Positions 6,808-30,784 of a DNA stretch of 64,000 nucleotides are shown here, piece after piece. Both the position numbers and the translations under genes were made by a program. This DNA comes from Spirochaetia bacterium (GTDB lineage Bacteria; Spirochaetota; Spirochaetia; CADAEX01), in assembly GCA_963662265.2 (NCBI GenBank), contig CAXXHA010000001.1:247672-311671 (forward strand). The letters run 5' to 3'. Under the pieces are notes generated by a model. That model ran no database searches. It was not told the origin of the DNA and was given only the letters and a program-made list of their open reading frames with translations. Each line of letters begins with the position of its first letter. Positions within the stretch are counted from its first letter, which is position 1.

Positions 6808-8802
6808 TTATGGAAGATTCTTTTTTATCTCTGCAAGGACCTCATCCGTATCTGTCTTGTAGAGAGTTTTGTTTCCTATCCTTACAGTCGGTCCCCTGTC
6901 GCATGTTTCCCTGCAGAATGATGCCTGTACAGAGACTTTTCCGCTGAAACTGCTTTCAGCTTCTTTAATCACACTTGATAATATTGCCTGGGATCCCCTG
7001 AGGAAGCATCCTGTACCGACACATACTTTGACTTCAAGAGGATTTTTGACATCTGTTTTTACAAGACTGTATTCAGCAGTCTGTATCCTTTTTCTGCTTT
7101 CAAATGAAGTATGAAGAAGGCTGTGAGCCTCACTGCTTCCTGCCTTGCCGCCAAGATATCTGGTATAAACAGGGTCAATGAAAGGGTTCTGAGCTGTATT
7201 TTTTACAGGTTCCCGCCTGTCAATTCCGTCAAGAGCACTTGAACGCTTCAGCCTCATCTTTCCTTCAGGATCAACCGGCTGGCCTGCCCCTCCGACACAT
7301 CCGCCTGGACATGCCATTACTTCAATAATATCATATTCACAGCTGCCATCTATGACAGATCTTGCTACCTTATCCGCATTTTTAAGTCCCTGGACTGTGC
7401 AGACTCTAACAGTCTCCCCATTCAGCAATATGTTCATGACTGAAATACCGGGATTGTCTTCAGGGTGTTCACAGCTTAAATCCTGACTGGAGATATCTTC
7501 ACCTGATTTTGCAACAGTATACCTGATCACAGCTTCTGCAACTCCCCCGGATCTGCCGAATATGCTTCCGGCTCCTGAACTTGAAGACATTGGGAGATCC
7601 ATTGATGACGGTTCAACTTCATCAAACAGAATACCAGCCTGCATAATCATTTTTCCGAGTTCCTGTGTTGTAAGGACATTATCAACAAGTTGATTTCCAT
7701 CAACAGAAAGCTCTTTACGGTCTTTTTCAAATTTTTTCGCAGTACACGGCATCACAGATACCATTTTTATCTTCCTGCCATCTACAGCCTCCTCATCTGC
7801 AAGGATTTTCCTTCCTATACTTGCTGTCATTGACTGCGGAGACATACATGAAGAGAGGTGGTTAAGAAGTTCAGGATATGACTGCTCTGCAAATTTCACC
7901 CAGCCTGGACAGCATGATGTAAAAAGAGGCAGCCTGCTTTCATTTTTTCTTTCCAGAAACTCATTTGATTCTTCAATTACAGTGAGGTCAGCACCGAAAG
8001 CTGTGCTGTACACCCTGTCAAACCCCAGAGCTTTCAATGAGGCAACTATCCGCCCTGTTACATCCTGACCAGTCAGGTTAAACATCTCACCGAGAGCTGT
8101 GCGGACAGCCGGAGCTATCTGGACGGCAGTGAATGTATTTTCATCTTCAATAAGACTCCATACTGCATCAACCTCGGAACGGGGAACAATAGCGCCTGTG
8201 GGACAGACAGCAGCACACTGGCCGCAGTTAACACAGTCCACTTCTGAAAGACTCTTATTGAATGCAGGTGTTACCTTTACTTCCTCGCCTCTGTAGGCAA
8301 AATCTATAGCTCCGATTCCCTGTATTTCCGAACAGTACCTCACACAGTCTCCACAGAGAATACATTTATTCGGGTCCCTGACAAGGGCCGGTGAACCGGT
8401 ATCAAGATCCATCTTTTCCCTTGTTTTTCTGAACCGGATATCGGAAACTCCCAGTTTTGATGCAATGCTCTGAAGTTTACAGCTCCCCTCCTTGCTGCAT
8501 GAAGGACAGTTCATCTCATGGTTTGCAAGAAGAAGTTCCATTGTCATTTTTCTTATATCACGAAGTTTTTTTGTTGATGTTTTTATCTTCATTCCGTCCC
8601 GTGGAGGTGTTGAACAGGAAGCCATTACCCCCCGACCTTCAACCTCTACAATACAGAGACGACAGGCCCCGTATACACTGAGCTCTGAATGATAGCAGAA
8701 AGTAGGCAGTTCTATTCCTGCTTTTCTTACTATTTCAAGAAGATTTTTTTCATCCTCTATAGGTATTCTTTTATTGTTAACAGTTACAAAACCTTTACTC
8801 AT
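6808..8802 (-). CDS. hydA: [FeFe]-hydrogenase catalytic subunit HydA (group A, trimeric type) with C-terminal thioredoxin-like [2Fe-2S] domain
   Basis: H-cluster motifs TSCCPGW, MPCTAKKFE and EVMACPGGCVGGAGQP. N-terminal 2Fe-2S, His-ligated 4Fe-4S and 2x4Fe-4S domains. C-terminal CVGTGC...CRETC. Confidence 0.95.
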   Translation of the reverse strand: MSKGFVTVNNKRIPIEDEKNLLEIVRKAGIELPTFCYHSELSVYGACRLCIVEVEGRGVMASCSTPPRDGMKIKTSTKKLRDIRKMTMELLLANHEMNCPSCSKEGSCKLQSIASKLGVSDIRFRKTREKMDLDTGSPALVRDPNKCILCGDCVRYCSEIQGIGAIDFAYRGEEVKVTPAFNKSLSEVDCVNCGQCAAVCPTGAIVPRSEVDAVWSLIEDENTFTAVQIAPAVRTALGEMFNLTGQDVTGRIVASLKALGFDRVYSTAFGADLTVIEESNEFLERKNESRLPLFTSCCPGWVKFAEQSYPELLNHLSSCMSPQSMTASIGRKILADEEAVDGRKIKMVSVMPCTAKKFEKDRKELSVDGNQLVDNVLTTQELGKMIMQAGILFDEVEPSSMDLPMSSSSGAGSIFGRSGGVAEAVIRYTVAKSGEDISSQDLSCEHPEDNPGISVMNILLNGETVRVCTVQGLKNADKVARSVIDGSCEYDIIEVMACPGGCVGGAGQPVDPEGKMRLKRSSALDGIDRREPVKNTAQNPFIDPVYTRYLGGKAGSSEAHSLLHTSFESRKRIQTAEYSLVKTDVKNPLEVKVCVGTGCFLRGSQAILSSVIKEAESSFSGKVSVQASFCRETCDRGPTVRIGNKTLYKTDTDEVLAEIKKNLP

Positions 8803-10694
8803 TATACAACTCCTACAGCATCAAATTTACATGCATCAGCACATGCACCGCACTTTATACACAGATTCTCATCAATCACATGCGGCTCCTTGCGTTCACC
8901 TGAAATCGCTCCGACAGGACACTTTCTCGCACAGAGAGTACAGCCCTTGCACTTTTCAGCATCTATACTGTAGACAGCAAGTGCACTGCAGTTTCCTGTA
9001 GGACACTTTTTATCAACAACATGGGAAAGATATTCTTCCCTGAACTGTTTCAGTGTAGATAAAACAGGAGACGGGGCTGATTTACCGAGACCGCACAGCG
9101 AAGCTGTTGCTACAGTTTTGCTGAGTTCTTCAAGCAGAGAGAGAGTCTCTTCAGTCCCTCTTCCTTCAATTATGTCATCAAGAAGTTCCAGCATCTGCCT
9201 TGTCCCTTCCCTGCAGGGAACACACTTTCCGCATGATTCATGCTGGGTAAATGCCATGAAAAACCTTGCAACCTGAACCATACATGTGCTGCTGTTCATC
9301 ACCACAAGTCCGCCTGAACCTACCATTGCCCCGACCTTGCCGAGCGAATCAAAATCAAGAGGTATATCAAGATGTTCTTCTGTAAGACACCCTCCTGAAG
9401 GCCCTCCTATCTGCACAGCCTTGAAATCACTGTTATCGAGTTCCCCTTTTTCATTGATAACACCGCCGCCGATATCAAAAATTATCTGACGGAGAGTTGT
9501 CCCGAAAGGAACTTCTATAAGACCTGTATTTACTACATGGCCGGTAAGTGCAAAGGTTTTAGTTCCGGGAGATTTTTCTGTGCCTGTTTTGCTGTATGAT
9601 TCCGAACCATTCAGAATAATCAACGGAACAGCAGCAAGTGTTTCAACATTGTTTACAACAGTCGGCTTTTCCCAGAGTCCCTTCTCAGCTGTTCTCGGGG
9701 GTTTCGGCTTGGGCATTCCCCGGTTACCCATTATGCTGGATACCATTGCGCTTGCTTCACCGCAGACAAATGCTCCCGCACCTTCCATGACATGAAGCTT
9801 GAGAGAACTGTCAGTTCCGAAAATGTTGTTTCCGATAATTCCAGCCGCTTCAGCATCTGCAATAGCATTTCTTATTCTTTCAACAGCCAGCGGATATTCT
9901 GTTCTTACGTAGATATATCCTTCATCAGAACCTGTGGCACGGGAAGCAATCATCATTCCCTCTATAACTGAATGAGGATTTCCCTCAAGAATACTCCTGT
10001 CCATAAATGCGCCGGGATCCCCCTCATCACCGTTGCAGATTATGTATTTCTTATCACTTTTCTGCCAGAGAGCAAGTTCCCATTTCCTGCCTGTCGGGAA
10101 TCCCCCGCCGCCTCGGCCTCTGAGGCCGGAAGCTTTCATTTCATTGCAGATTTCTTCAGGTGTCATCTGAAGATAGGCCCGCCTTGCAGCTTCATACCCG
10201 TCTGAAGCTATATATTCATTGATATCTTCAGGATCACAATTTCCGCAGCTTTTCAGGACTGTACGCTTCTGTTTTGCATAGAAAGGTATATCGCCCTGCC
10301 CCCGGCATTTCCTATCTGTTGAAGGATCAGTATAAAGCAGCCTTTCTATAACCTCATTCCTGATTATTGTTTTTTCAACAATCTCCTCAACATCTTCCGG
10401 TTTAACATGAGCATACATTATTCCATCCGGTTCAATTGTAACAAGTGGCCCTACCTGGCAGAATCCCTGGCATCCGCTTCCGGATACAAGTACTTCGGGA
10501 GATTTTTCCTCCGGCTTCAGTTTTACATCGACACGGATATTTCTTTCCTTCTGCAGGCTGACAAGGAGGTCATAAATTTTTCTGGATCCGTTTGCAAGAC
10601 AACCGGTTCCCGCACAGACAATAATTCTCCTGTCTATATCTTTTCTCGCAGAAATATATTTGCTTTTTATTTTATCAAGATTTGCAACAGCCAT
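8802..10694 (-). CDS. hydB: NADH/FMN-binding hydrogenase subunit HydB (NuoF-like)
   Basis: GRGGGGFPTG, GDEGDPGAFMDR, FVCGE and ESCGKCVPCREG motifs, N-terminal 2Fe-2S and C-terminal 2x4Fe-4S. The 630-aa size fits electron-bifurcating HydB. Confidence 0.95.
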   Translation of the reverse strand: MAVANLDKIKSKYISARKDIDRRIIVCAGTGCLANGSRKIYDLLVSLQKERNIRVDVKLKPEEKSPEVLVSGSGCQGFCQVGPLVTIEPDGIMYAHVKPEDVEEIVEKTIIRNEVIERLLYTDPSTDRKCRGQGDIPFYAKQKRTVLKSCGNCDPEDINEYIASDGYEAARRAYLQMTPEEICNEMKASGLRGRGGGGFPTGRKWELALWQKSDKKYIICNGDEGDPGAFMDRSILEGNPHSVIEGMMIASRATGSDEGYIYVRTEYPLAVERIRNAIADAEAAGIIGNNIFGTDSSLKLHVMEGAGAFVCGEASAMVSSIMGNRGMPKPKPPRTAEKGLWEKPTVVNNVETLAAVPLIILNGSESYSKTGTEKSPGTKTFALTGHVVNTGLIEVPFGTTLRQIIFDIGGGVINEKGELDNSDFKAVQIGGPSGGCLTEEHLDIPLDFDSLGKVGAMVGSGGLVVMNSSTCMVQVARFFMAFTQHESCGKCVPCREGTRQMLELLDDIIEGRGTEETLSLLEELSKTVATASLCGLGKSAPSPVLSTLKQFREEYLSHVVDKKCPTGNCSALAVYSIDAEKCKGCTLCARKCPVGAISGERKEPHVIDENLCIKCGACADACKFDAVGVV

Positions 10695-11197
10695 TACTCT
10701 GCAGCCTCCTTTTCTCTGATTTCTTCAATCAGTTCATTCATTTTTGCCTCATCAACCTGTCCGTACACCTGATCATTGATAACAACAACAGGAGCCAGGC
10801 CGCACGCTCCAAGACAGGATACTGTCTCCAGTGTAAAAAGCAGATCCGGAGTACTTATTTCCTTTCCGGTAAGTCCCAGACATTTTTTAACCATTTTTAT
10901 GATATTGCCCGAACCTTTTACATGACAGGCAGTACCGTCACAGACCTTGATAACATATTTACCTTTCGGCTCCAGTGAAAAATGGCTGTAAAATGTTGCT
11001 ATACCGAAAACTTTAGCCGGAGACATTCTCAGCACAGATGCAACAAGAATCATTACCTCTTCAGGCAGATATCTGTATTCTTCCTGAACAGCCTGAAGTA
11101 TAGGTATAATTTTTCCCGGATCAGAATCATACCTGTCCAGAATTTCCCATACCTTCTGCAGTCTTACTGCTTCTTCAACAGTCTTTAAATCACTCAT
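10694..11197 (-). CDS. hydC: [2Fe-2S] hydrogenase subunit HydC (NuoE-like)
   Basis: ATFYSHF, CDGTAC and CLGACGLAP motifs. ATG 11197 lies 6 nt after AAGGAG. Confidence 0.93.
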   Translation of the reverse strand: MSDLKTVEEAVRLQKVWEILDRYDSDPGKIIPILQAVQEEYRYLPEEVMILVASVLRMSPAKVFGIATFYSHFSLEPKGKYVIKVCDGTACHVKGSGNIIKMVKKCLGLTGKEISTPDLLFTLETVSCLGACGLAPVVVINDQVYGQVDEAKMNELIEEIREKEAAE

Positions 11198-11212
11198 ACT
11201 CAACTCCTTAAA

Positions 11213-11247
11213 CGCTTTCGAGCACTTTCATGTCAGAAAGTCTCTGC
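11213..11247 (-). promoter_or_regulatory. Conserved pre-RBS hairpin element, copy 1 (before hydC)
   Basis: mRNA GCAGAGACUUUCUGACAUGAAAGUGCUCGAAAGCG, about 31/35 identical to 19116-19149 with a compensatory stem change. Confidence 0.6.
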
Positions 11248-12431
11248 TAAATGTAATCAACCTTGACTTCTTTCAATAAGTTGTTTGACAGGATGTCAGC
11301 TATCCGTCTGACAATATTCCTCCTTATTTCAAGCCCGACAGGGACATTCGGATCCTGATGGGCTTCATTAATTCTGGTCCCTACCAGAAACTCTATTTCA
11401 TCGCTGTCACGGAGAAGTTCAACCACTGCTGTGGCGCTGTTTTCTTTCCTTATTTCATCCAGGTTCTCTTCTTCAAGAATCTCTGCAACCCTGCTGAGGG
11501 TGAATATACCCTCTGTAACAATTTCAATTCCCTCCATCGATGCAGAGGGGGGGAGATCTGAATCCAGATTTGACATTTTTGTATCTACCGGGCGGTCAAG
11601 CTCTCTTGAAATAATATTTGCAGTTGTCCCGCCTGAAATAACAACCCTTCCGTTAAACTTATCTATTCTTGCAGCCAGCAGGGAATCCTTTTCCCTGTCT
11701 ATGGGGGGACCTGTCGCAATAAGCAGTTTTCTCGGTTCCCTGACATAGAAAACAGCAGCTGTAATATCATCCTTTGCTGTATAAATATCATTTCTCACAC
11801 CCCTGTTTACAATTTCACGGGCCAGGTTTCGTGCAGAGATATTTCCGTTGCGGCGGATAAGAGAAAGAATCCATTCACTGATTTTTTCATGTTCCCATCC
11901 GAACGGGTATGAGGCATTGCCCATTCCCGACTGTGTAACTCCATCGGAAAAAATAACTATTCTGTCCCCGGTCTGGAGCCTGAAACGGGATGAAAAGAGC
12001 GTGTTTCTTGAACTGACAGGGCTTTCAATCTTTACAGGTGTCCTTTCAGGACAGACAACCTCTCCTCCGCGGATAAGAATGTAGGGAGGATTATCAAATT
12101 CCACAATTTTAACAGATCTGTCATTTTCAATTTCAACTATTGTAAATGTTGCATAACTGATTTTCCGGATACTGCAGACAGGCAGGGACTGCATGATTAC
12201 CTGGGCAGTTCTTTTTGGGGATACCCTGCCGTCGATACATTTTGCGGCAAGAGTTGTTGTAAGAGTTGCAAGCACATTTGCCTTAACCCCGCTGCCGAGA
12301 CCATCGGAGAGAACAGAGACAGTCCTGCTTTCATCGCAGCTTCTCTGGGATAAAAAAACATCTCCTCCCACAAGCTGCCCTTTCTTGTAAATCTGGGCAG
12401 AATCAATTTCCAGAAAATAGTTGTCAGACAC
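11247..12431 (-). CDS. SpoIIE/PP2C-family Ser/Thr phosphatase (HfsC-like)
   Basis: GGD, LSDGLGSG, FSDG and DDIT motifs. GTG start coupled to the hydS stop. Confidence 0.88.
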   Translation of the reverse strand: MSDNYFLEIDSAQIYKKGQLVGGDVFLSQRSCDESRTVSVLSDGLGSGVKANVLATLTTTLAAKCIDGRVSPKRTAQVIMQSLPVCSIRKISYATFTIVEIENDRSVKIVEFDNPPYILIRGGEVVCPERTPVKIESPVSSRNTLFSSRFRLQTGDRIVIFSDGVTQSGMGNASYPFGWEHEKISEWILSLIRRNGNISARNLAREIVNRGVRNDIYTAKDDITAAVFYVREPRKLLIATGPPIDREKDSLLAARIDKFNGRVVISGGTTANIISRELDRPVDTKMSNLDSDLPPSASMEGIEIVTEGIFTLSRVAEILEEENLDEIRKENSATAVVELLRDSDEIEFLVGTRINEAHQDPNVPVGLEIRRNIVRRIADILSNNLLKEVKVDYI

Positions 12432-14176
12432 TACATGTCCTCCCCGGAAATATCCTTGCCTGAAAAAGAATCAATTATTTCATTGAGAATAACTTCATTT
12501 TCACCGGCATTTTCACCCAGGAGATAGGCAATTTTCTGTACAGTTTCAAGATTCTTATGAATAACTTTACGGGCATCGTTTATAACCCTGTCCCGGTTGA
12601 CCCAGGGTTTTGTAACATCCTGGATAATTGCGCCTGTTACCTGCCCCTTGTGAACAGGGAAAACAGTTATTGAAAGCACCTTTTTCTTGAATTCAACTTT
12701 CCTGTCTATGATTTCCCTGCCTGATTCAGCAACCTGGTTAAAAAGACCTGAAAAAGGGATCATCTTTTCAAGATTTGCCCCTGACAGATTGGGCCTGCTC
12801 TCCCACAGGAGAAGTGTTTCTTCACCCAGGAGTTCTGCAAAATTACGGTTGCATTCAATTATGGAAAGAGAACTGTCAGCAATAACAACACCTGAAGGCA
12901 TTTTTTCAATAATCGCATTTGCCTTTTTCTGTGCAAGAGTTCTCATGTAGGAGACACACATCAGGGATTCAGCTTTGTTGTCAAGGACAGCCCTGGCAAA
13001 ATCCCGGCAGGTATTATATCCGCAGCCGCCGCAGTTAAGCTCATCCTCGGGAGAATACTTGCCGATAGATTCCATTACTCTTATCAGCTCCAGGTCGGAA
13101 TGTGTTTTCCTTTCAGGAACAGATATATTTCTGCTGCATGTGACGGGAAAATAAGAACTTTTAGATAGAATTTCATTGAAATCAGGGCTGAAGTCTGTAC
13201 TTTTATCCCTGTACTGCTTCAGGACATCTCTTCTTTTTCGTACAGTCTCGCCCCTTTTGCAGCTCTTGGGACCATTGATACAACCGCCCCTGCATGCAAG
13301 AAGTTCAAGAAATAAATTTTCATCTTTTTCCGGTAACGGGATATTATCAAGCGCCGATTCTATCTCAGTCATACCGGAAATACTCATAAAAACAGTGTTA
13401 CTGCATTCGGAAAAGCTTTTTATGCTCTCACACATGCCGCCGTCAATAGGATAGAGAGCTCCCTTCCCCGCCTCACACGGGAAAAACTCATGCTTTTCAG
13501 ATGAGACAGTATCCGGGTTGATTCCCTTTGCATTGAAGAGATCCCGTATATCCTCAAATGTGACTGCAGCTGAAATAAGGTCGGGATTGTCATCAGCTTC
13601 TCTTTTTTTTGAAAGGCAGGGACCTGCAAAAACTATCTGGAAACTGCTGTCAATCTCTTTAAGCATTCTGCAGTGTGCTGTAAGGGGAGAACCTGTATCG
13701 GAAATATATTCTGAAGCCTTGTTTCTGTATTTGACAATATATTCTACAGCTGACGGGCATGCTGAAGATATAATAATACGTCCGCTTTCTTTTTCAAGCA
13801 TCTTTGAATATGCGGATGATACTATTTCAGCTCCCAGGGCTGTTTCTGAGACTGCTGAAAAGCCCAGTTCAAGCAACCCGTTTACAAGCTGGTTTCTGGA
13901 AAATTCAGGAAATTCCCCGGGATAGGAAGGGGCAAGTGAAAGTACAATCTTATCACCGCTCTCAAGAAGCGCCGATATTCTGCCGAGTTCATCCCGTCCC
14001 CTCTTGGCATGGGAGGGACAGACAGAAACGCACTTTCCGCAGTATATACAGAGGTCAGGATCAATTCTTGCATGCCCGTTATTGAAGCTTATCGCCTTTA
14101 CAGGGCAGTAGCGGACACATTTAAAACAGTCATGACATTCAGTCTTTTCAGTATATACAGGAAAAAGAAAATCCAT
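12431..14176 (-). CDS. hydS: Putative sensory [FeFe]-hydrogenase (group C, HydS/HfsB) with Fe-S and PAS domains
   Basis: 2x4Fe-4S N-terminus, variant H-cluster motifs SSACPS, GPCLSKKREA and ELLACRGGCINGP, then CGGCGYNTC FeS domain and a C-terminal PAS-like region. Confidence 0.88.
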   Translation of the reverse strand: MDFLFPVYTEKTECHDCFKCVRYCPVKAISFNNGHARIDPDLCIYCGKCVSVCPSHAKRGRDELGRISALLESGDKIVLSLAPSYPGEFPEFSRNQLVNGLLELGFSAVSETALGAEIVSSAYSKMLEKESGRIIISSACPSAVEYIVKYRNKASEYISDTGSPLTAHCRMLKEIDSSFQIVFAGPCLSKKREADDNPDLISAAVTFEDIRDLFNAKGINPDTVSSEKHEFFPCEAGKGALYPIDGGMCESIKSFSECSNTVFMSISGMTEIESALDNIPLPEKDENLFLELLACRGGCINGPKSCKRGETVRKRRDVLKQYRDKSTDFSPDFNEILSKSSYFPVTCSRNISVPERKTHSDLELIRVMESIGKYSPEDELNCGGCGYNTCRDFARAVLDNKAESLMCVSYMRTLAQKKANAIIEKMPSGVVIADSSLSIIECNRNFAELLGEETLLLWESRPNLSGANLEKMIPFSGLFNQVAESGREIIDRKVEFKKKVLSITVFPVHKGQVTGAIIQDVTKPWVNRDRVINDARKVIHKNLETVQKIAYLLGENAGENEVILNEIIDSFSGKDISGEDM

Positions 14177-14178
14177 AT

Positions 14179-14418
14179 TTAATTCTCCCTGAGTGAATTT
14201 CTGAGAAGATCTGTCAGAACAACAGGATCAACATTGTAATATCTCTTTCCGTCTATGGAGATGACAGGGCCTCTGCTGCATTCTTCCATACATAAACAGC
14301 CTGTAAGTTTTACACTACCTTCAATACCGTTATCCATGACAAAGTCTTGTGCAATCCGGACATTTTCCCTGTTTCCGCGCGAATGGCAGGAGCTTCCCAT
14401 GCAGATGACAATTTCCAT
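14179..14418 (-). CDS. Thioredoxin-like [2Fe-2S] ferredoxin (HfsA-like)
   Basis: CMGSSC...CLCMEECSRGP; first gene of the hydrogenase operon. Confidence 0.85.
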   Translation of the reverse strand: MEIVICMGSSCHSRGNRENVRIAQDFVMDNGIEGSVKLTGCLCMEECSRGPVISIDGKRYYNVDPVVLTDLLRNSLREN

Positions 14419-14420
14419 AA

Positions 14421-14480
14421 AAACCAGCCTTATAAGGATATTTTCTTATCGATATATTTATATCCTTATAAGGCTGGTTT
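14421..14480. repeat. Perfect 21-bp inverted repeat (18-bp spacer) overlapping the hydrogenase-operon promoter and RBS region
   Basis: AAACCAGCCTTATAAGGATAT (14421-14441) and ATATCCTTATAAGGCTGGTTT (14460-14480). Minus-strand TTGACA (14485-14480), 17 bp, TATAAA (14462-14457). Confidence 0.85.
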
Positions 14481-14675
14481 GTCAATAGCTACATTTTTAT
14501 CGATACGCAATTATTGTTTAAGAGCTGAAGAATATAAGCAAAAGAACGATATGAGATTCCAAATTAAATTGTATTAATAAAAAATGATAGTGAGGATGCA
14601 AACAGGATATCTGAAATGAAATACAGTATACAGAAATTAAAATTATCTATAATTATCCTTAAAATATAAGCTGTG

Positions 14676-17210
14676 TCAGGTTTTAAAATGATTTATTCCC
14701 CGCTCAAGTTCATCACCTATTTCACTGATTTCATCGGTAAGCTTTTTGACAATAAACATTGCATCGGATATTTCCAAAGTACCATTCTGTATTTCACTTA
14801 TCGCATGATCAACTTCATTTGAAATATTTTTCACCATTCCCATCGAAGATGCGACCTCCCCGGTACCGGCTCCTATTTCCGTTGCGCTTTCCCTTACCCT
14901 GACAGAAATATCCTGCAGAGAATTCACTGCTGTTAGTATTTCATCAGTCCCTGTTCTGAGTTCTTCAGTATTCATCTGAATTTCAGAGAGGGCATTTATA
15001 ACAGACCCCACTTCATCTGAAATTTCACTGAATGCTGAATTCATATCATCGCTTGTCCGGTCTGCATTCTGGATTTTCTCAATAATAGTCTTTATTGTCT
15101 TTGTTATCTCACCGGAATTTTTCTGTGAAGATTCAGCAAGCTTACGTATTTCATCTGCAACAACAGCAAAACCTCTCCCCTCATCCCCCGCATGGGCAGC
15201 TTCAATTGCCGCATTCATGGCAAGAAGGTTAGTCTGTTCAGATATTTCATTAATAACACGAGCCATATCGCTTATACTGTCAACATTTTTATTTATCTCA
15301 TCTATCAGTTTTACTGTAAGAACAAGTTTCTCCCCGCCGTTCCTTACAGTATTATTCAGTTTTCCGGCAGCTGCTATTTTGCTGTCTGTGATATCAGCAA
15401 CCATTTTGATCGATCTGATCATGGCTGAAACAGATGCTGTTGACTGCTCAACCATTGATGCCTGATTATCTATCTGGCTGTTGAAAGAATTAACACTGCT
15501 GCTTATCTCTTCTACAGCAGATGTTGATGTGGAAATGCTGCTGTTGAGTATATGAATCTGCTTCAAAATACTGTCAATATTTGCCTTTATCTGTACAACA
15601 GCAGCAGATGTTTCCTCTGTTGTTTCGATAAGGTTTTTCTTGACATCAATATTTCTTGAGGATGAATTTTTGATCGATAAAATTGATTTTTTAAGCTTGC
15701 CTGTAAGCAGGTTGAAATTACGCGCCAGTATTCCAGTTTCATCAGAATTTTTATCGCTTTTATATACACGGCATTCTGAGCAGTTATTATGAAAACCTGA
15801 TTCAAGATGCCTGCAGATCACCTTCCTGCTGTGATCAGGAGCGAAACTCCCTATTTCATCCCAGCAGGAAAGTCCCTCTTTCCCGGATATTCCCGGCTCA
15901 AGATCAGAACCTGCAGCTTTTTTACTGATAACTATATTACGTCTTAAATCCCCTTCTGCAACAACTTTAGTCATATCAGCAATCTTTGTTATGGGAAGCG
16001 TTATTGTGCTGATAACAAAACCACTCAGGAAAATTACTGCCAGTATGAGAAATGCGGTAATACCGACAGTTATCAGCATGGTCCTGACAACATCAGATCT
16101 CACTGATACTTCCCTGATCTTTATCTGTTCATTTATATCATCGATATATACACCTGTTCCGATAATCCAGTTCCAGGGACTGAAAAGCCTGATAAAGGAT
16201 TCCTTGGGCTGATCAAGAGTGGTGCCATCCTCTGTCGGCTTGGGCCAGAGGTATTCAACAAACCCGGATCCCGATTTTTCAGCAACTTCAACAAAAGCTG
16301 TAAAAAGATTTTTCTTTTCCTCTCCGACAACATTATATTCCGGGTTACTGAGAACCTGACCGTCAAGAGAAGGGATTACAGGATGCATTACCATTTCAGG
16401 ATAAGGCTTCGAAGTATTGTTGATCCAGAAATAGCCAACACCCCTGTCATATCTCATCCTGCTGATTATCCCGATAGTATCACTCTTTGCCTGATCAACA
16501 GCATCATCAATATAGATACCAGTCCCTATAATCCAGTCCCATTCATCTATCAGCCTTACATAGGAAAGTTTCGGCTGCTCTTCCGTGACACCTCCGGGAA
16601 CCGGTTTAGGCCATAAATACCTGACAAATCCTTCCCCCTTTTCACTGCAGACCCTGTTGAATACAACAAAGAGGTTTTCCCTTTCCTCCCCGACAGTATT
16701 GTATTTTTCACTGTCAAGGATTTCTCCGTTCAGAGACGGGCTTATCGGGTGCATTACCATTTCAGGATAAGGCTCCAGAGTATTGTTGATCCAGACATAT
16801 CCCGTACCGCCGTCATATCTGATATTGCGGATCCGGCTCACTGCCCTTTCTTTAGCCTCTTCCTCGTTCCTTACCCCTTCTTCATAATCAGCAATTTCTT
16901 CCCTGATTATTGTCTCTGCAATTTCAACCGTACTCTTAAGCCTGCTTCCGTATTTGCCGGACAGATAATTATCACTTCTTGTGTTTTCATAGTTTGATTC
17001 AATAATGTTATATACGACATCGATCAGGTCTTTAAGATCGCTTCTCACATCTTCGATATTCTCTTTCCTGTACATTGCTATTTCATCTTTACTGCGGTTT
17101 AGAAGTGTCAGAATATTTATTGCAGCCAGTGATACAGAAATGATAAGAATTGATACAACAAGGGTAAAATTTATCTTGTTCAGAATTTTCCATTTTTGAA
17201 ATTTTCTCAT
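14676..17210 (-). CDS. Methyl-accepting chemotaxis protein with two tandem Cache-type sensor domains and a Cys-rich insert in the HAMP domain
   Basis: Two TM segments, duplicated GYx[14 protein letters not shown]...YLWPKP...WIIGTG, and signalling motif [33 protein letters not shown]. Confidence 0.93.
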
Positions 17211-17355
17211 CTTTATAAACTCCCTGTCTTATGCGGCAGCCATGATGAAATAATCATATTTAAATGTAGATAAGGAATAGTATAGGATTTAAATATTTCA
17301 AATTCAATTTTTTGAGAGAAAAAAGGAAATTACTTTTATCAAATGAGCTTAGCTT

Positions 17356-17395
17356 AAAAAAAGCAGAGGCTTTTGATTTAAACAAAAACCTCTGC
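17356..17395 (-). terminator. Intrinsic terminator after the nfeD-floA operon
   Basis: GCAGAGG...CCTCTGC stem followed on the minus strand by a 7-U run. Confidence 0.65.
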
Positions 17396-17403
17396 CGAAT
17401 AAT

Positions 17404-18084
17404 TCAGATTTTTTCAGATACCGGTTTATCAAGGATCTCCTTGAGAACAACAGCTTTCTGTATATCGGGATAACGGGAAAGTGTATCAAGTATCCCCCCT
17501 TTTTTCCTTCTGCCCCCGGATACAGAAGCAGTCTTTAACCCGGAAAGTGAACGGATGTCTTTCTTTCCGGCAGTTTTCTTTTCCTGCCCCCTGGAATATT
17601 TTTCAGATTTTTTCTTTTTATCAATCCAATCATCAGGTATATCTTCCCTGTCCTCTTTACGGTAGTCTTTCTCCGGAGTATCATCCTTTACATCATATTT
17701 TACAAAACTTTCACGGGAATAGACTGTTTTAAGGAATTCCTTACCCTTATAACCTCTGGCATCAGCATAGGAATCCTGATGTACTTCTTCTGCATCAGGA
17801 TAAGCAGCTTCTTCTGCCTCTTCCCGGTAGGCAGTTTCATATTCTCCGTCAGGCATGAATGCTGATTTGAAATCACGATCAGCATCTTCAGCATGCTGCC
17901 CCTCTTTCTTGAGCCGTTCTGCCTCTTCCATGCTCTTTATAAGCTCTTCAAGCTTGTCCCTGAGCGGAGGAGATTTTGCTCCGGCAGATTTCTTTTTATC
18001 TCCGCCGGAAGCAGCTTTTTTTATCTTGTTCATCACCCTGACAATGAAAATAATCATGGCAATGAAAAATATCAAACCTTCCAT
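17404..18084 (-). CDS. Hypothetical membrane-anchored charged protein (third gene of nfeD-floA operon, YqfB-like position)
   Basis: N-terminal TM helix and C-terminal IQKAVVLKEILDKP; synteny with floA. Confidence 0.7.
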   Translation of the reverse strand: MEGLIFFIAMIIFIVRVMNKIKKAASGGDKKKSAGAKSPPLRDKLEELIKSMEEAERLKKEGQHAEDADRDFKSAFMPDGEYETAYREEAEEAAYPDAEEVHQDSYADARGYKGKEFLKTVYSRESFVKYDVKDDTPEKDYRKEDREDIPDDWIDKKKKSEKYSRGQEKKTAGKKDIRSLSGLKTASVSGGRRKKGGILDTLSRYPDIQKAVVLKEILDKPVSEKI

Positions 18085-18095
18085 AACAGTTTGCC

Positions 18096-19100
18096 CTATT
18101 CGCCGTTTTTACCTTCGGCTGATTCATCTCCGGCCCTGCTGATCGCATCTCTCATGCTTGTATCAGATTCAATGTTCTTGAGCCTGTAATAATCCATTAC
18201 ACCGATTTTACCGGTTTTAAGCGCTTCTGCCATTGCAAGAGGAACCTGGGCCTGAGCATCGATAACCTTGGCCTGCATCTCCTGTGCCCGCGCCTTCATT
18301 TCCTGTTCCTGGGCAATAGCCATTGCCCTTCTGGTTTCAGCCCGTGCCTGGGCAATCTTGAGATCTGCTTCTGCCTGGTCAGTCTGCAGAGCTGCTCCGA
18401 CATTATCACCGACATCAACATCAGCAATATCTATTGAAAGGATCTCAAAAGCTGTACCTGAATCAAGACCTCTTTCAAGCACTACCTTGGAAATAAGATC
18501 CGGATTTTCAAGAACTGTCTTGTAGCTTTCTGAAGAACCGATTGCAGAGACAACACCTTCGCCTACACGGGCAATAATTGTATCTTCAGTCGCTCCGCCG
18601 ACCAGATTTGCAATATTAGTCCTTACTGTAACCCTTGCCTTCCCTTTCAGCTGTATGCCGTCTTTTGCAACAGCGCTTATCATTCCGCTCTTGGGACAGT
18701 CGATAACTTTCGGGTTTACAGAAGTCTGTACAGCTTCAAGCACATCACGGCCTGCAAGATCTATAGCCGCAGCCATGGAAAAATCAAGATTTATCTTTGC
18801 CTTGTTTGCAGCAATAAGAGACTGTACAACTTTCATTATCTGCCCCCCGGCAAGATAATGGGTTTCAAGCATATTTGTTGTTATATCAATTCCCGCTTTC
18901 TGCGCTGAAATAAGCGCCTCGACAATAAGTTTAGGGGGAACTCTCCTGAATCTCATCAGAAAGAGCTGAATAAGAGATACTCTTACACCGCTTGCTACAG
19001 CACTGAACCATAAAGGTATTGGTATGAAGCTGAAAAAAATTACAAGAAAAAGTATGACAAGTATTGTCATGATAATAACTAGAAAAGGGAAACCAATCAT
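18096..19100 (-). CDS. floA: Flotillin-like protein FloA (YqfA family)
   Basis: [56 protein letters not shown] and GVMDYY motifs. Confidence 0.95.
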
Positions 19101-19115
19101 TTAAACCTCCAATAT

Positions 19116-19149
19116 CGCTTTCGAGCACTTCCCTTCAGGAAGTCTCTGC
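19116..19149 (-). promoter_or_regulatory. Conserved pre-RBS hairpin element, copy 2 (before floA)
   Basis: mRNA GCAGAGACUUCCUGAAGGGAAGUGCUCGAAAGCG, at the same distance from SD and AUG as copy 1. Confidence 0.6.
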
Positions 19150-19175
19150 CGCTGCTGATAAAAAACAAGTTTTTA

Positions 19176-20495
19176 TCAGTTTTCTGTTTTTTCTCTGGCA
19201 ACAACAATATTGTTGCTTTCTATTTTTTGTACAATAACTATTGTGTTTTTCTCGATATAACTCCCGTTACTTACAGCCTGATATATCATTCCCCCGATAT
19301 CAACCTTTCCCGAGGGTCTGAGAACAGTCACTGCTGTTCCTTTCATTCCGACAAGGGAGGTGTCAGTTTCCACCTTGAGATTCATGTCTGTAGAGGGATC
19401 ATCCTGAAGAGTAAGACGCCTGAATGTCTTCGTCTTTATGACTGTCTTATAGCTCAGCACAAGAAAAATCACTGACATGAGTATAATAGTGCTTAAGGCT
19501 GCCCCTGCAGCCGCATAATCAGACATATAGGGAATATCAGAGATCATGGAGAAATAAAGACCGCCGAAAACAAGTATAATGCCGGAAATCCCGGCAAAAC
19601 CGAATCCGGGAATGACAAAGACCTCAAGAACAAGAAGTATTAGGCCCAGAATAATTGCACTGATCTCAATCCAGTTAGCCATTCTCAATATGTAATGACT
19701 CATTATAAAAGCGGTAAATGCAAGGATTCCGATTATTCCGGGAAACCCGAATCCGGGGCTTCTCAGCTCGAAGAAAATACCGACCATGCCAAGTGTCAGG
19801 AGAATTGATGCAACAGCAGGATTGGTAAGCAGCCTTACAATAGTCTCCTTCAGAGAGACAGTAACATCAGTACTGTTTTTAATTTCCAGATATTCAAAAA
19901 GTTTATCTTCATCTTCTATGATTTTATCCGCAAATCCAAGCTCAAGGGCCTCCTCTGCAGTAAGAGTCAGAAGCTTCCCCTCTTCAGAGATATCAGGAAT
20001 AACAATACTCTCATCAACCATAGCCTCCCCGACAAGGGGGTCCCTTCCCTTTGCCTCACATGTCGACCTCATCTCTGCCCTCATGTATGAAACCTGCTTT
20101 TCTGTAAGTTTCTGTCCCTGCTGATTCACAGGTGTTACTGCACCTATTGTGGAACCTTTAGTCATGAAAACCTGGTCGCAGGAGAGAGTAATAAGAGCAC
20201 CTGCAGAAATTGCCCTGCTGTTGACAAATGCGGCTGTTTTGATTTCCGTGCCAATAATTGCATCCTTGATTTCTGTGGCAGCATCAACCCTGCCCCCGAA
20301 TGTGTTGATAAGAAATACAATATAATCTGCTTTTTTATTTTCTGCTTCCTCGATTCCCCGCTTCACAGTGAGCGGAAGCCCCAGATCAATCATCCCTTCG
20401 ACAGGGATAACAATGCTTTCTGAAAAGATATTACCTGAAACTGTTACAAGAAACAGGAAAAAAAATATTTTAAAATATGCTGTTTTTTTTATCAT
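19176..20495 (-). CDS. nfeD: NfeD-family membrane-bound serine protease (ClpP-class domain, TM region, OB fold)
   Basis: INTFGG, AISAGALI, LLTLTAEEA and LRPSGK motifs; adjacent to floA. Confidence 0.9.
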   Translation of the reverse strand: MIKKTAYFKIFFFLFLVTVSGNIFSESIVIPVEGMIDLGLPLTVKRGIEEAENKKADYIVFLINTFGGRVDAATEIKDAIIGTEIKTAAFVNSRAISAGALITLSCDQVFMTKGSTIGAVTPVNQQGQKLTEKQVSYMRAEMRSTCEAKGRDPLVGEAMVDESIVIPDISEEGKLLTLTAEEALELGFADKIIEDEDKLFEYLEIKNSTDVTVSLKETIVRLLTNPAVASILLTLGMVGIFFELRSPGFGFPGIIGILAFTAFIMSHYILRMANWIEISAIILGLILLVLEVFVIPGFGFAGISGIILVFGGLYFSMISDIPYMSDYAAAGAALSTIILMSVIFLVLSYKTVIKTKTFRRLTLQDDPSTDMNLKVETDTSLVGMKGTAVTVLRPSGKVDIGGMIYQAVSNGSYIEKNTIVIVQKIESNNIVVAREKTEN

Positions 20496-30490: not shown

Positions 30491-30620
30491 AATTTCTCCA
30501 GTATATAACATACTATAATCAAATTATTATTCCAGTATCATTAAAAATGCAATTAAATATTAAATATTTCAGTACAGTTCTCTTGACAACAATTACCTGC
30601 CGGGTATAGCATGTTGCTGT

Positions 30621-30758
30621 ATTTTTCGGGGCAAGGTGAGCTCATCTTAATGAAGAGCAATTCCTGACCGGCGGTTAAAGCCCGCGACTCTTCCTTACGG
30701 AAGATTGAATCGGTGAAATTCCGATGCCGACGGTACAGTCCGGATGGGAGAAGAAAAA
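30621..30758 (+). ncRNA. FMN riboswitch (RFN element)
   Basis: TTCGGGGCAAGGTGA...AATTCCTGACCGGCGGTTAAAGCCCGCGA...GGTGAAATTCCGATGCCGACGGTACAGTCCGGATGGGAGAAGA upstream of the rib operon; TTGACA at 30583. Confidence 0.97.
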
Positions 30759-30784
30759 TATTTGTCTTTCCATGAATTAATTAC

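Follow-up and report, generated by a model that had tools for sequence, protein, structure and literature searches.

Two hairpin-forming sequences that precede hydC and floA in a 64,000-nt stretch of the draft genome of a Spirochaetia bacterium belong to a dispersed, modular repeat of approximately 70 nt, which is represented by about 63 copies at 41 loci. This stretch (hereafter the window) corresponds to positions 247672-311671 of contig C1 in genome G000 (3.77 Mb in 41 contigs, 38.5% GC). Comparison of filled and empty sites makes it likely that the repeat is a lineage-specific miniature insertion element, directed to Shine-Dalgarno (SD) motifs and co-transcribed with its host genes. The original prediction, based on the two window copies, had instead proposed a cis-acting RNA module located upstream of two unrelated genes. 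Our analysis bears out the structured nature of the sequence, which shows covariation in both of its helices, together with its sense orientation and its link to the SD, but its dispersal is that of an insertion element resembling REP and MIRU sequences rather than that of a module dedicated to hydC and floA.

A dispersed and modular repeat family

The exact 13-nt core of the repeat occurs 17 times in G000, and an exact long pattern gave 30 matches, compared with none for a reversed-pattern control. A profile search (nhmmer) returned 64 hits that fall into 41 clusters, and a two-hairpin covariance model (R1), built from an alignment of repeat copies (A1), found 63 matches. Copies within one cluster are on the same strand in 41 of 41 cases. 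Each complete unit comprises a short purine tract, an AT-rich variable hairpin (hairpin A), an AGCGRCA linker, a conserved 9-bp hairpin with a bulged G (hairpin B, GAGACUUYC-loop-GRAAGU-G-CUC) and a GAAAGCG tail followed by 3-5 nt. Hairpin A typically has the form ATGATAAAAAC-TTG-GTTTTTATCAT, usually opening with ATG and closing with CAT, although other forms are found (GCAAAAC/GTTTTGC, CTGAAAAC/GTTTTCAG and GTCAAAAAC/GTTTTTGAC). Units are present singly, as hairpin B only (the hydC copy), in the arrangements B-B and A-B-A, and in tandem arrays that contain at most four units and repeat every 69-77 nt.

Within the window, the pattern GAGACTTYC-N4-8-GRAAGTGCTCGAAAGCG has two matches and none in 100 shuffles. 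Read on the minus strand, the hydC leader (11247..11195) is GCAGAGACTTTC-TGACAT-GAAAGTGCTCGAAAGCG-tttaa-GGAG-ttgagt-ATG and the floA leader (19149..19098) is GCAGAGACTTCC-TGAAG-GGAAGTGCTCGAAAGCG-atatt-GGAG-gtttaa-ATG, exactly as first described. The identical spacing in both leaders (5 nt from the hairpin to GGAG and 6 nt from GGAG to ATG) and the compensatory change of U-A to C-G in the stem were likewise verified. The reported identity at 31 of 35 positions reflects a real likeness, the reason for which is common descent within the repeat family. The hydC copy, matched by R1 at 11210-11274 (minus strand, 48.7 bits), begins with the G of the TAG stop codon of the upstream phosphatase gene. 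The floA copy is a full A+B unit (19113-19183, minus strand, 85.6 bits), and the TGA stop codon of nfeD (19176-19178) sits within the 5' arm of its hairpin A. A further match with two mismatches, at window positions 18470-18482, is inside the floA coding sequence and was set aside as a chance occurrence.

The comparison with Rfam suggested by the original prediction assigned the element to no family; at the gathering threshold the sole match in the window was a flavin mononucleotide (FMN) riboswitch, and a permissive scan of four element loci gave a best E value of 0.43. The 13-nt core was not found on either strand in the literature searched, in which MIRU, REP2/IR, BOX and REP-type repeats were the only analogues of SD-adjacent repeats that turned up (subscription journals not covered).

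Filled and empty insertion sites

Genome G001, from the same genus as G000, encodes a FloA protein that is 96% identical and aligns with G000 over long flanks at 71-85% identity. All eight loci that were compared (floA, hydC, C11:40771, C10:260452, the C16 array, skp, ftsY and a permease gene) are empty in G001, and in a further relative, G002, both of the loci viewed are empty. The element is thus not conserved in relatives, an outcome that the original prediction had listed as contrary to it. At every compared junction (Table 1) the SD and spacer to the right of the insert are those of the empty allele, which indicates that they are resident and were not brought in by the element. The insert, which is in the sense orientation, immediately precedes the SD core and leaves the SD, spacer and start codon intact. 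In the case of floA the entire unit is missing in G001 and G002, and for the SD, spacer and ATG G001 has the identical sequence, GGAGGtttaaATG. The element-free G001 junction orthologous to that of hydC reads TAG-cttGAGGAGtttttATG and likewise has an SD and a start codon. Stop codon, SD and start codon are tightly packed or overlapping in G001 (TAAATG, ATGA, TAGGAG), whereas in G000 the upstream open reading frame (ORF) stops at or near the 5' edge of the insert, often at the TGA of ATGA(T/A)AA. Among sequenced DNA samples, X1 contains the entire window and may be its source; contigs of a second sample (X4) span the hydC and floA sites, and both insertions are present.

In the G001 locus L057:1340-1510, the counterpart of window positions 19098-19183, the stop codon of nfeD abuts the start codon of floA (TAAATG) and the floA SD is inside the nfeD coding sequence, whereas 75 nt separate the nfeD stop from the floA start in G000. 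The last residues of NfeD before the stop are AEDKSEV in G001 and AREKTEN in G000.

Table 1. Features of the two window copies, filled and empty junctions in G000 and G001, and copies of a second, terminator-like repeat.
Feature	Position	Strand	Sequence or remark
Hairpin-B-only repeat copy before hydC	11213..11247	-	GCA, GAGACUUUC / GAAAGU-G-CUC with bulged G, GAAAGCG tail
Resident SD (GGAG), 6-nt spacer and ATG of hydC	11195..11207	-	coding sequence 10694-11197
Hairpin A of floA copy	19155..19179	-	CUGAUAAAAAC-UUG-UUUUUUAUCAG; present in minimum free energy fold
Linker, hairpin B and tail of floA copy	19116..19154	-	CAGCG-GCA linker; GAGACUUCC / GGAAGU-G-CUC; GAAAGCG tail
Resident SD (GGAGG), spacer (tttaa) and ATG of floA	19098..19110	-	coding sequence 18096-19100
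floA junction			G001 empty ...caaatcGGAGGtttaaATG; G000 filled ...gaaaacTGAtaaaaac[about 70 nt]gcgatattGGAGGtttaaATG
C10:260452 junction			G001 empty atatataGGAGGctgcaATG; G000 filled atatata[GAGAAATGAT...GCATTAT]GGAGGttgcaATG
ftsY junction			G001 empty cttgaacAGGAGAgaaaATGAaaaat; G000 filled ctgaa[AGAATGAAAAAAAC...two units...gtgatac]AGGAGaaaaaATGaaaaat
Permease junction			G001 empty atgaaaTAGGAGaaacatTTG; G000 filled atgaaaTAG[...]tattaTAGGAGacacatTTG
Terminator-like repeat, intact	G000 C7:14560, C35:51234, C41:31126		
Terminator-like repeat holding element	G000 C10:332101, C14:25608, C15:38834, C29:66876; G001 L035:1490-1590		

Orientation and position relative to genes

The gene downstream of the element is co-oriented with it in 35 of 40 clusters according to automated calls, or in 36 of 40 after addition of a missed ORF of 49 amino acids. 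Clusters are over-represented between co-directional genes (32 observed, 24.6 expected) and under-represented in divergent (5 versus 10.5) and convergent (3 versus 4.9) gaps. The random orientation or position that would have spoken for a simple scattered repeat was looked for and not found: 30 clusters in co-directional gaps are sense and 2 antisense (p=2.5e-7), and the junction to the SD is fixed. The core of the gene's SD begins 2-7 nt past the tail in about 14 of the 41 clusters, compared with a null expectation of 4.2% (p=6e-10), and a partial module lies between tail and SD in many of the remainder. The genome-wide survey is therefore consistent with the original observations as regards orientation and SD distance, but it reveals many dispersed copies, often in tandem, in place of a module shared by two genes. 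Orientation tracks the genes and not replication; 68% of genes are on the G-rich strand and the clusters divide 28:12 between the putative leading and lagging strands, yet of the 12 clusters assigned to the putative lagging strand, 9 have a gene that points the same way.

The downstream genes include rplI, rplS, yidC, ftsY, bamA, skp, leuA, asd, coaBC, transketolase, ortA, an HslV-like subunit, Usp and transporters, in addition to hydC and floA. This is a mixed housekeeping set that does not look like a regulon. The 49-residue ORF mentioned above is outside the window at about 22834-22983 of contig C1 (minus strand), directly behind the cluster at C1:23028, and falls below the 60-residue threshold of the gene caller. 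It is Cys-rich (MANIAVILVLLGII...CIGCPYSG...SCSCL), is preceded by a strong SD and looks like a small membrane protein.

Insertion directed to a motif on one strand would explain the orientation, the position and the constant spacing without any function of the element. We infer that the placement reflects an insertion preference and not survival alone, because a random inserter would persist in convergent gaps and in both orientations, as is described for the pneumococcal BOX, RUP and SPRITE repeats (extract of PMC3049150). On balance, the sequences favour an element, mobile now or in the past, that targets AGGAG-type motifs on one strand, although we hold this with somewhat less assurance than the assignment to a miniature insertion element as such. 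Current mobility is unproven.

AGGAG-type motifs that precede no gene

Several copies adjoin a motif of this type in the absence of a gene. The last module of the cluster at C35:98417 abuts AGGAG with no start codon behind it. Four clusters in G000 and the single, decayed copy in G001 are found in the loop of a second small repeat (Table 1), and no gene's SD is involved in these cases. An AGGTGG-type motif follows the element after 4-7 nt in the G001 copy and in that at C14:25622, and after about 20 nt in the other three. These gene-less cases favour motif choice over selection for a translational role, although the four terminator-loop copies in G000 may stem from one or two insertion events.

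The second repeat family forms a terminator-like hairpin, CCACC-loop-GGTGG, followed by CTTTTGCTTTAGT, and is often located behind a GTGCGGCAAAAGCCGCAC hairpin. Its intact form is CCACC-act-AGAGGAGGTGG-CTTTTGCTTTAGT; the loop carries an AGAGGAGG motif, and in several copies this motif has received an insertion of the two-hairpin element.

RNA structure and the possibility of a selected module

Covariation was assessed in 64 copies (58 distinct), including those of a second organism described below. Paired cells account for 93.3% of the alignment, compared with 79.5% after shuffling of columns and 43-57% when the partners are slid. Changes on both sides are seen in 14 of 19 pairs (9 of the 10 pairs of hairpin A, 5 of the 9 of hairpin B), and G.U pairs outnumber A.C mismatches by 38 to 13, an excess that fits pairing in the sense strand. 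Hairpin B alone has a predicted energy of -9.7 kcal/mol in the hydC copy and -11.6 kcal/mol in the floA copy (z about -1.8 and -1.9, respectively). In the minimum free energy fold of the 96-nt floA leader both hairpins are formed and the SD is unpaired (-22.9 kcal/mol, z=-2.25). The fold in the hydC context is unexceptional (z=-0.66), an alternative pairing displacing the base of hairpin B. A further 2-bp helix between linker and tail could close the GRCA/GAAA internal loop (GC in 37 copies, AU in 2). This outer helix was not established, as just two sequences are changed on both sides and there are five broken cells per pair.

The view taken in the original prediction, that the sequence is a selected cis-acting RNA module which tunes about 35-40 genes and whose spread is secondary, appears unlikely to us. 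Such a module could be a site for RNase processing or stabilisation, a translation enhancer or insulator, or a binding site for a lineage-specific RNA-binding protein. The sense orientation in 36 of 40 clusters with a fixed SD junction, the covariation of both helices with more G.U than A.C, and the unpaired SD in the floA fold are all in its favour, as are conservation of the unpaired AGCGRCA and GAAAGCG flanks with their possible closing helix and retention of the core in two bacterial families. The enrichment in co-directional gaps, unlike the convergent enrichment of the pneumococcal repeats (extract of PMC3049150), points the same way. On the other hand, the same genes function in the absence of the element in G001 (8/8 sites) and G002 (2/2 sites), the number of copies per locus varies from one to four, units can be partial or shuffled, and the targets have no functional theme. 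In addition, some copies adjoin AGGAG-type motifs that lack a gene, the hydC leader has an unexceptional fold with competing pairing at the base of hairpin B, and selection alone does not explain the absence of insertions at neutral sites. The two interpretations are nevertheless compatible, since an inserted element can be exapted.

Distribution across genomes

The exact long pattern was absent from all 40 sampled relatives. With stricter filters R1 gave 58 matches in G000 and a single marginal one in G001 (E=0.003), with 59 other genomes giving none; at E<=1e-4 it had no match in the 19 other genomes of the order, which is equivalent here to the family. In a class-wide sample of 151 genomes (E<=1e-5), matches were confined to G000 and four genomes of one genus from another family. 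These four, out of six genomes sampled from that family, have 13, 4, 2 and 1 matches.

An exact-pattern scan of all species representatives identified one multi-copy genome, the Spirochaetes bacterium metagenome-assembled genome (MAG) G061 (the same as G076), in which the exact pattern matches 10 times and the model 18 times. Its core, AGCGGCAGAGACTTTCC...GGAAAGTGCTCGAAAGCG, is the same as in G000, but its hairpin A is not, as it is either rich in GC or very short. In G061 the succession of stop codon, [A-B] units, SD and ATG and the presence of arrays are as in G000. The patchy spread fits either horizontal transfer or an old low-copy family that has expanded in G000.

At L047:265-380 of G061, viewed on the minus strand, hairpin A (ATGGGCGAC...CCCAT) is split by about 80 nt of partly self-complementary sequence, which suggests a nested insertion or a rearrangement within the array. 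Single exact-pattern matches in Blautia, Eubacteriales, Algoriphagus and Pseudomonadota are missing the flanks of the family and were taken as chance. One match in the MAG record L049 has a GGAAAGC tail that resembles GAAAGCG, and might represent a genuine family member from a third lineage.

Comparison with known repeat families

By analogy, the closest counterparts of the element are the MIRUs and the REP2/IR-A/IR-B sequences, although it lacks a defining feature of each. MIRUs insert at start codons, carry a coupled ORF that has a -4 overlap with the host start, and are considered mobile, with a placement that causes little disturbance to host expression (extract of PMC12548453). The element likewise is short, often tandem and operon-internal, and lies in sense where translation of the downstream gene starts. 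Compared by description, however, it differs from MIRU in that it has no conserved frame or ORF, inserts 5' of the SD and not at the start codon, and has two conserved hairpins that could form in RNA or single-stranded DNA; an internal ORF overlapping both the stop and the start of the host genes was not found.

A MIRU-like element in which a small ORF couples the upstream stop to the downstream start is nonetheless suggested by the operon-internal, sense position of tandem units of 64-97 nt, many of which begin with ATG behind an SD-like purine tract, and by a 75-nt unit of the C16 array that is open in frame. Yet 28 of the 58 distinct units are without an ATG or anchor, the frame of the core relative to ATG in the other 30 is distributed 11:10:9, thirteen of the ORFs end after 6-8 codons, and variation in unit length is not in multiples of three. 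On the basis of the core frames we rejected a conserved mini-ORF with translational coupling, and the corresponding explanation is hardly credible.

REP2 of Neisseria and the IR-A/IR-B sequences of Borrelia plasmids are 120-150 bp in length and carry a promoter, a ribosome-binding site (RBS) and an ATG of their own (extract of PMC3184786). Like the element, they lack terminal inverted repeats, contain two internal stem-loops and are located immediately upstream of ORFs, and Borrelia is also a spirochaete. In contrast, the element is about 70 nt in length, chromosomal, mostly operon-internal and often in arrays, without a promoter and with a resident RBS and ATG. We therefore regard a cassette of this type, supplying its own signals, as very improbable in spite of the shared stem-loops, position and spirochaete lineage. 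There is no sigma-70-like promoter inside the element (none at the floA junction, and the sole hit at L014 falls ~100 nt before the array); the empty alleles have the same SD, spacer and ATG, and most copies are between co-transcribed genes.

BOX is modular with a variable number of modules, is co-transcribed and lineage-restricted, and has a predicted stable RNA structure; together with RUP and SPRITE it is enriched downstream of coding sequences and between convergent genes, and its terminal modules resemble the ends of insertion sequences (IS) (extract of PMC3049150). The element shares modularity with variable module number, presumed co-transcription, predicted RNA structure and lineage restriction with BOX, but it is enriched between co-directional genes (32 versus 24.6 expected), abuts SDs and has no IS relative that we could find.

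The REP/BIME and ERIC sequences of proteobacteria are small transcribed palindromes that can alter mRNA stability or processing according to orientation (extract of PMC3049150). The element is also a small, extragenic palindrome that is presumably transcribed. Unlike these sequences, it has no GTAG/CGTC tag, inverted pairs or link to a RAYT, and its placement is strictly sense at the SD. Nor did we find the similar end hairpins, replication bias or Y1 partner that characterise a PATE.

IS200/IS605 elements have a target choice that resembles insertion 3' of a CCTCC/CTCCT-like motif. It is possible, though improbable, that the element is a sequence of the REP/RAYT type or an IS200/IS605-derived PATE, and that a Y1 transposase mobilises it in the form of single-stranded DNA, recognising its hairpins and placing it beside a short target. 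The hairpin architecture, the lack of terminal inverted repeats and of a clear target duplication, the position of the bottom-strand element directly 3' of CCTCC/CTCCT and the presence of three Y1_Tnp genes in G000 would all be in keeping with this. However, the Y1_Tnp genes do not track the element (G001, G002 and G061 have five, one and five, respectively) and none is nearby. Moreover, hairpins A and B are unlike each other, with A freely variable, cluster copies are all direct with no inverted pairs of the REPIN/BIME type, and orientation follows the genes and not the replication strand or GC skew. By inspection, the consensus has no GTAG or CGTC tag (tag criterion from an extract of PMC3733652).

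Spread and consequences of a probable directed insertion element

If the repeat is an SD-directed miniature insertion element, its spread could be due to an enzyme acting in trans, or the SD-like purine tracts on either side of the units could serve as points of template switching or recombination. Once co-transcribed, the element is predicted to form two hairpins just upstream of an unpaired SD, so that the tight stop/start coupling represented by TAAATG, ATGA and TAGGAG in G001 would be replaced by independent initiation. The hairpins may serve as an RNase barrier or processing site. The effect on expression is probably small or locus-dependent.

We also considered copying of the start of the downstream gene by the 5' arm of hairpin A; at L047 the gene begins past another B module, and this was discarded. 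A match of 12 out of 14 nt between the ftsY start and the 5' arm is uninformative, given that A-rich gene starts are generic.

A number of observations weigh against a directed insertion element. No mobilising enzyme was identified, the Y1 genes neither co-vary with the element nor lie adjacent to it in G000, and self-BLAST of G000 revealed no IS or large repeat beside the clusters. The consensus, which extends from a purine tract plus ATGAT... to ...GAAAGCGTTA, has no terminal inverted repeats on inspection; such repeats, along with a target-site duplication of fixed length, characterise a MITE. The tracts on the left of the insert (GAGAA, AGGAAGA, GAA) could be degenerate SD copies or part of the element, leaving the eight junctions ambiguous as to target-site duplication. 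Presence/absence polymorphism within the species was not seen in DNA samples whose contigs bridge both sites (those of X6 and X7 do not). Hairpin B and the unpaired flanks are nearly identical across two bacterial families, and a selected RNA function would also predict both this conservation and the sense-strand excess of G.U. The evidence itself has biases: the alignment used for covariation was fitted to R1 and so leans towards the model's own structure, the count of co-oriented genes depends on our own ORF-based caller (3243 genes, minimum 60 amino acids), and the count of SD junctions was curated by hand (15 from the script, minus three internal to arrays, plus two diverged copies).

Dense internal repeats are present in G000 at C8:20-77 kb, C24:41-53 kb and C32:65-81 kb, where segments of 1-6 kb occur in 2-9 copies; they are unrelated to the element.

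Genomic context within the window

The gene labels of the original prediction hold in Pfam searches. The downstream genes encode a NuoE-like 2Fe-2S protein, HydC (PF01257, E=6.5e-52), and FloA (PF12127, E=7e-158), and those upstream a SpoIIE/PP2C phosphatase, a HydS-like hydrogenase and NfeD. Window positions 6808-14418 (minus strand) comprise a hydrogenase cluster in the order 79-residue 2Fe-2S thioredoxin-like protein, HydS-like sensory [FeFe] hydrogenase, PP2C/SpoIIE phosphatase, HydC, HydB and HydA. HydC has no close orthologue in G002, in which the best match is 44% identical. The FMN riboswitch (RF00050, 100.9 bits) is at 30618-30759 on the plus strand.

Implications

The 3' ends of genes are where small dispersed repeats are normally tolerated, whereas this family is found almost exclusively at the 5' edge of the RBS, and its sense placement within operons of essential genes (rplI, rplS, yidC, ftsY, bamA and skp) is unusual. 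Such placement suggests either target choice by SD motif or a portable RNA module. A more far-reaching possibility, which we put forward tentatively and do not regard as probable, is a non-coding miniature element that homes to SD motifs by strand-specific insertion at the 5' edge of AGGAG, so that RBSs would constitute a genome-wide safe harbour. The element might then have moved between two families, a factor would recognise the conserved bulged hairpin together with its purine-rich flanks, and coupled gene pairs would have been converted to independent initiation at dozens of housekeeping operons. The eight junctions available in filled and empty form represent a natural experiment, in which tight coupling can be compared with a hairpin-forming intercistronic region of 35-230 nt. 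They also carry a warning for genome annotation, since covarying hairpins at a fixed distance from a start codon can be copies of a repeat and not dedicated regulators.

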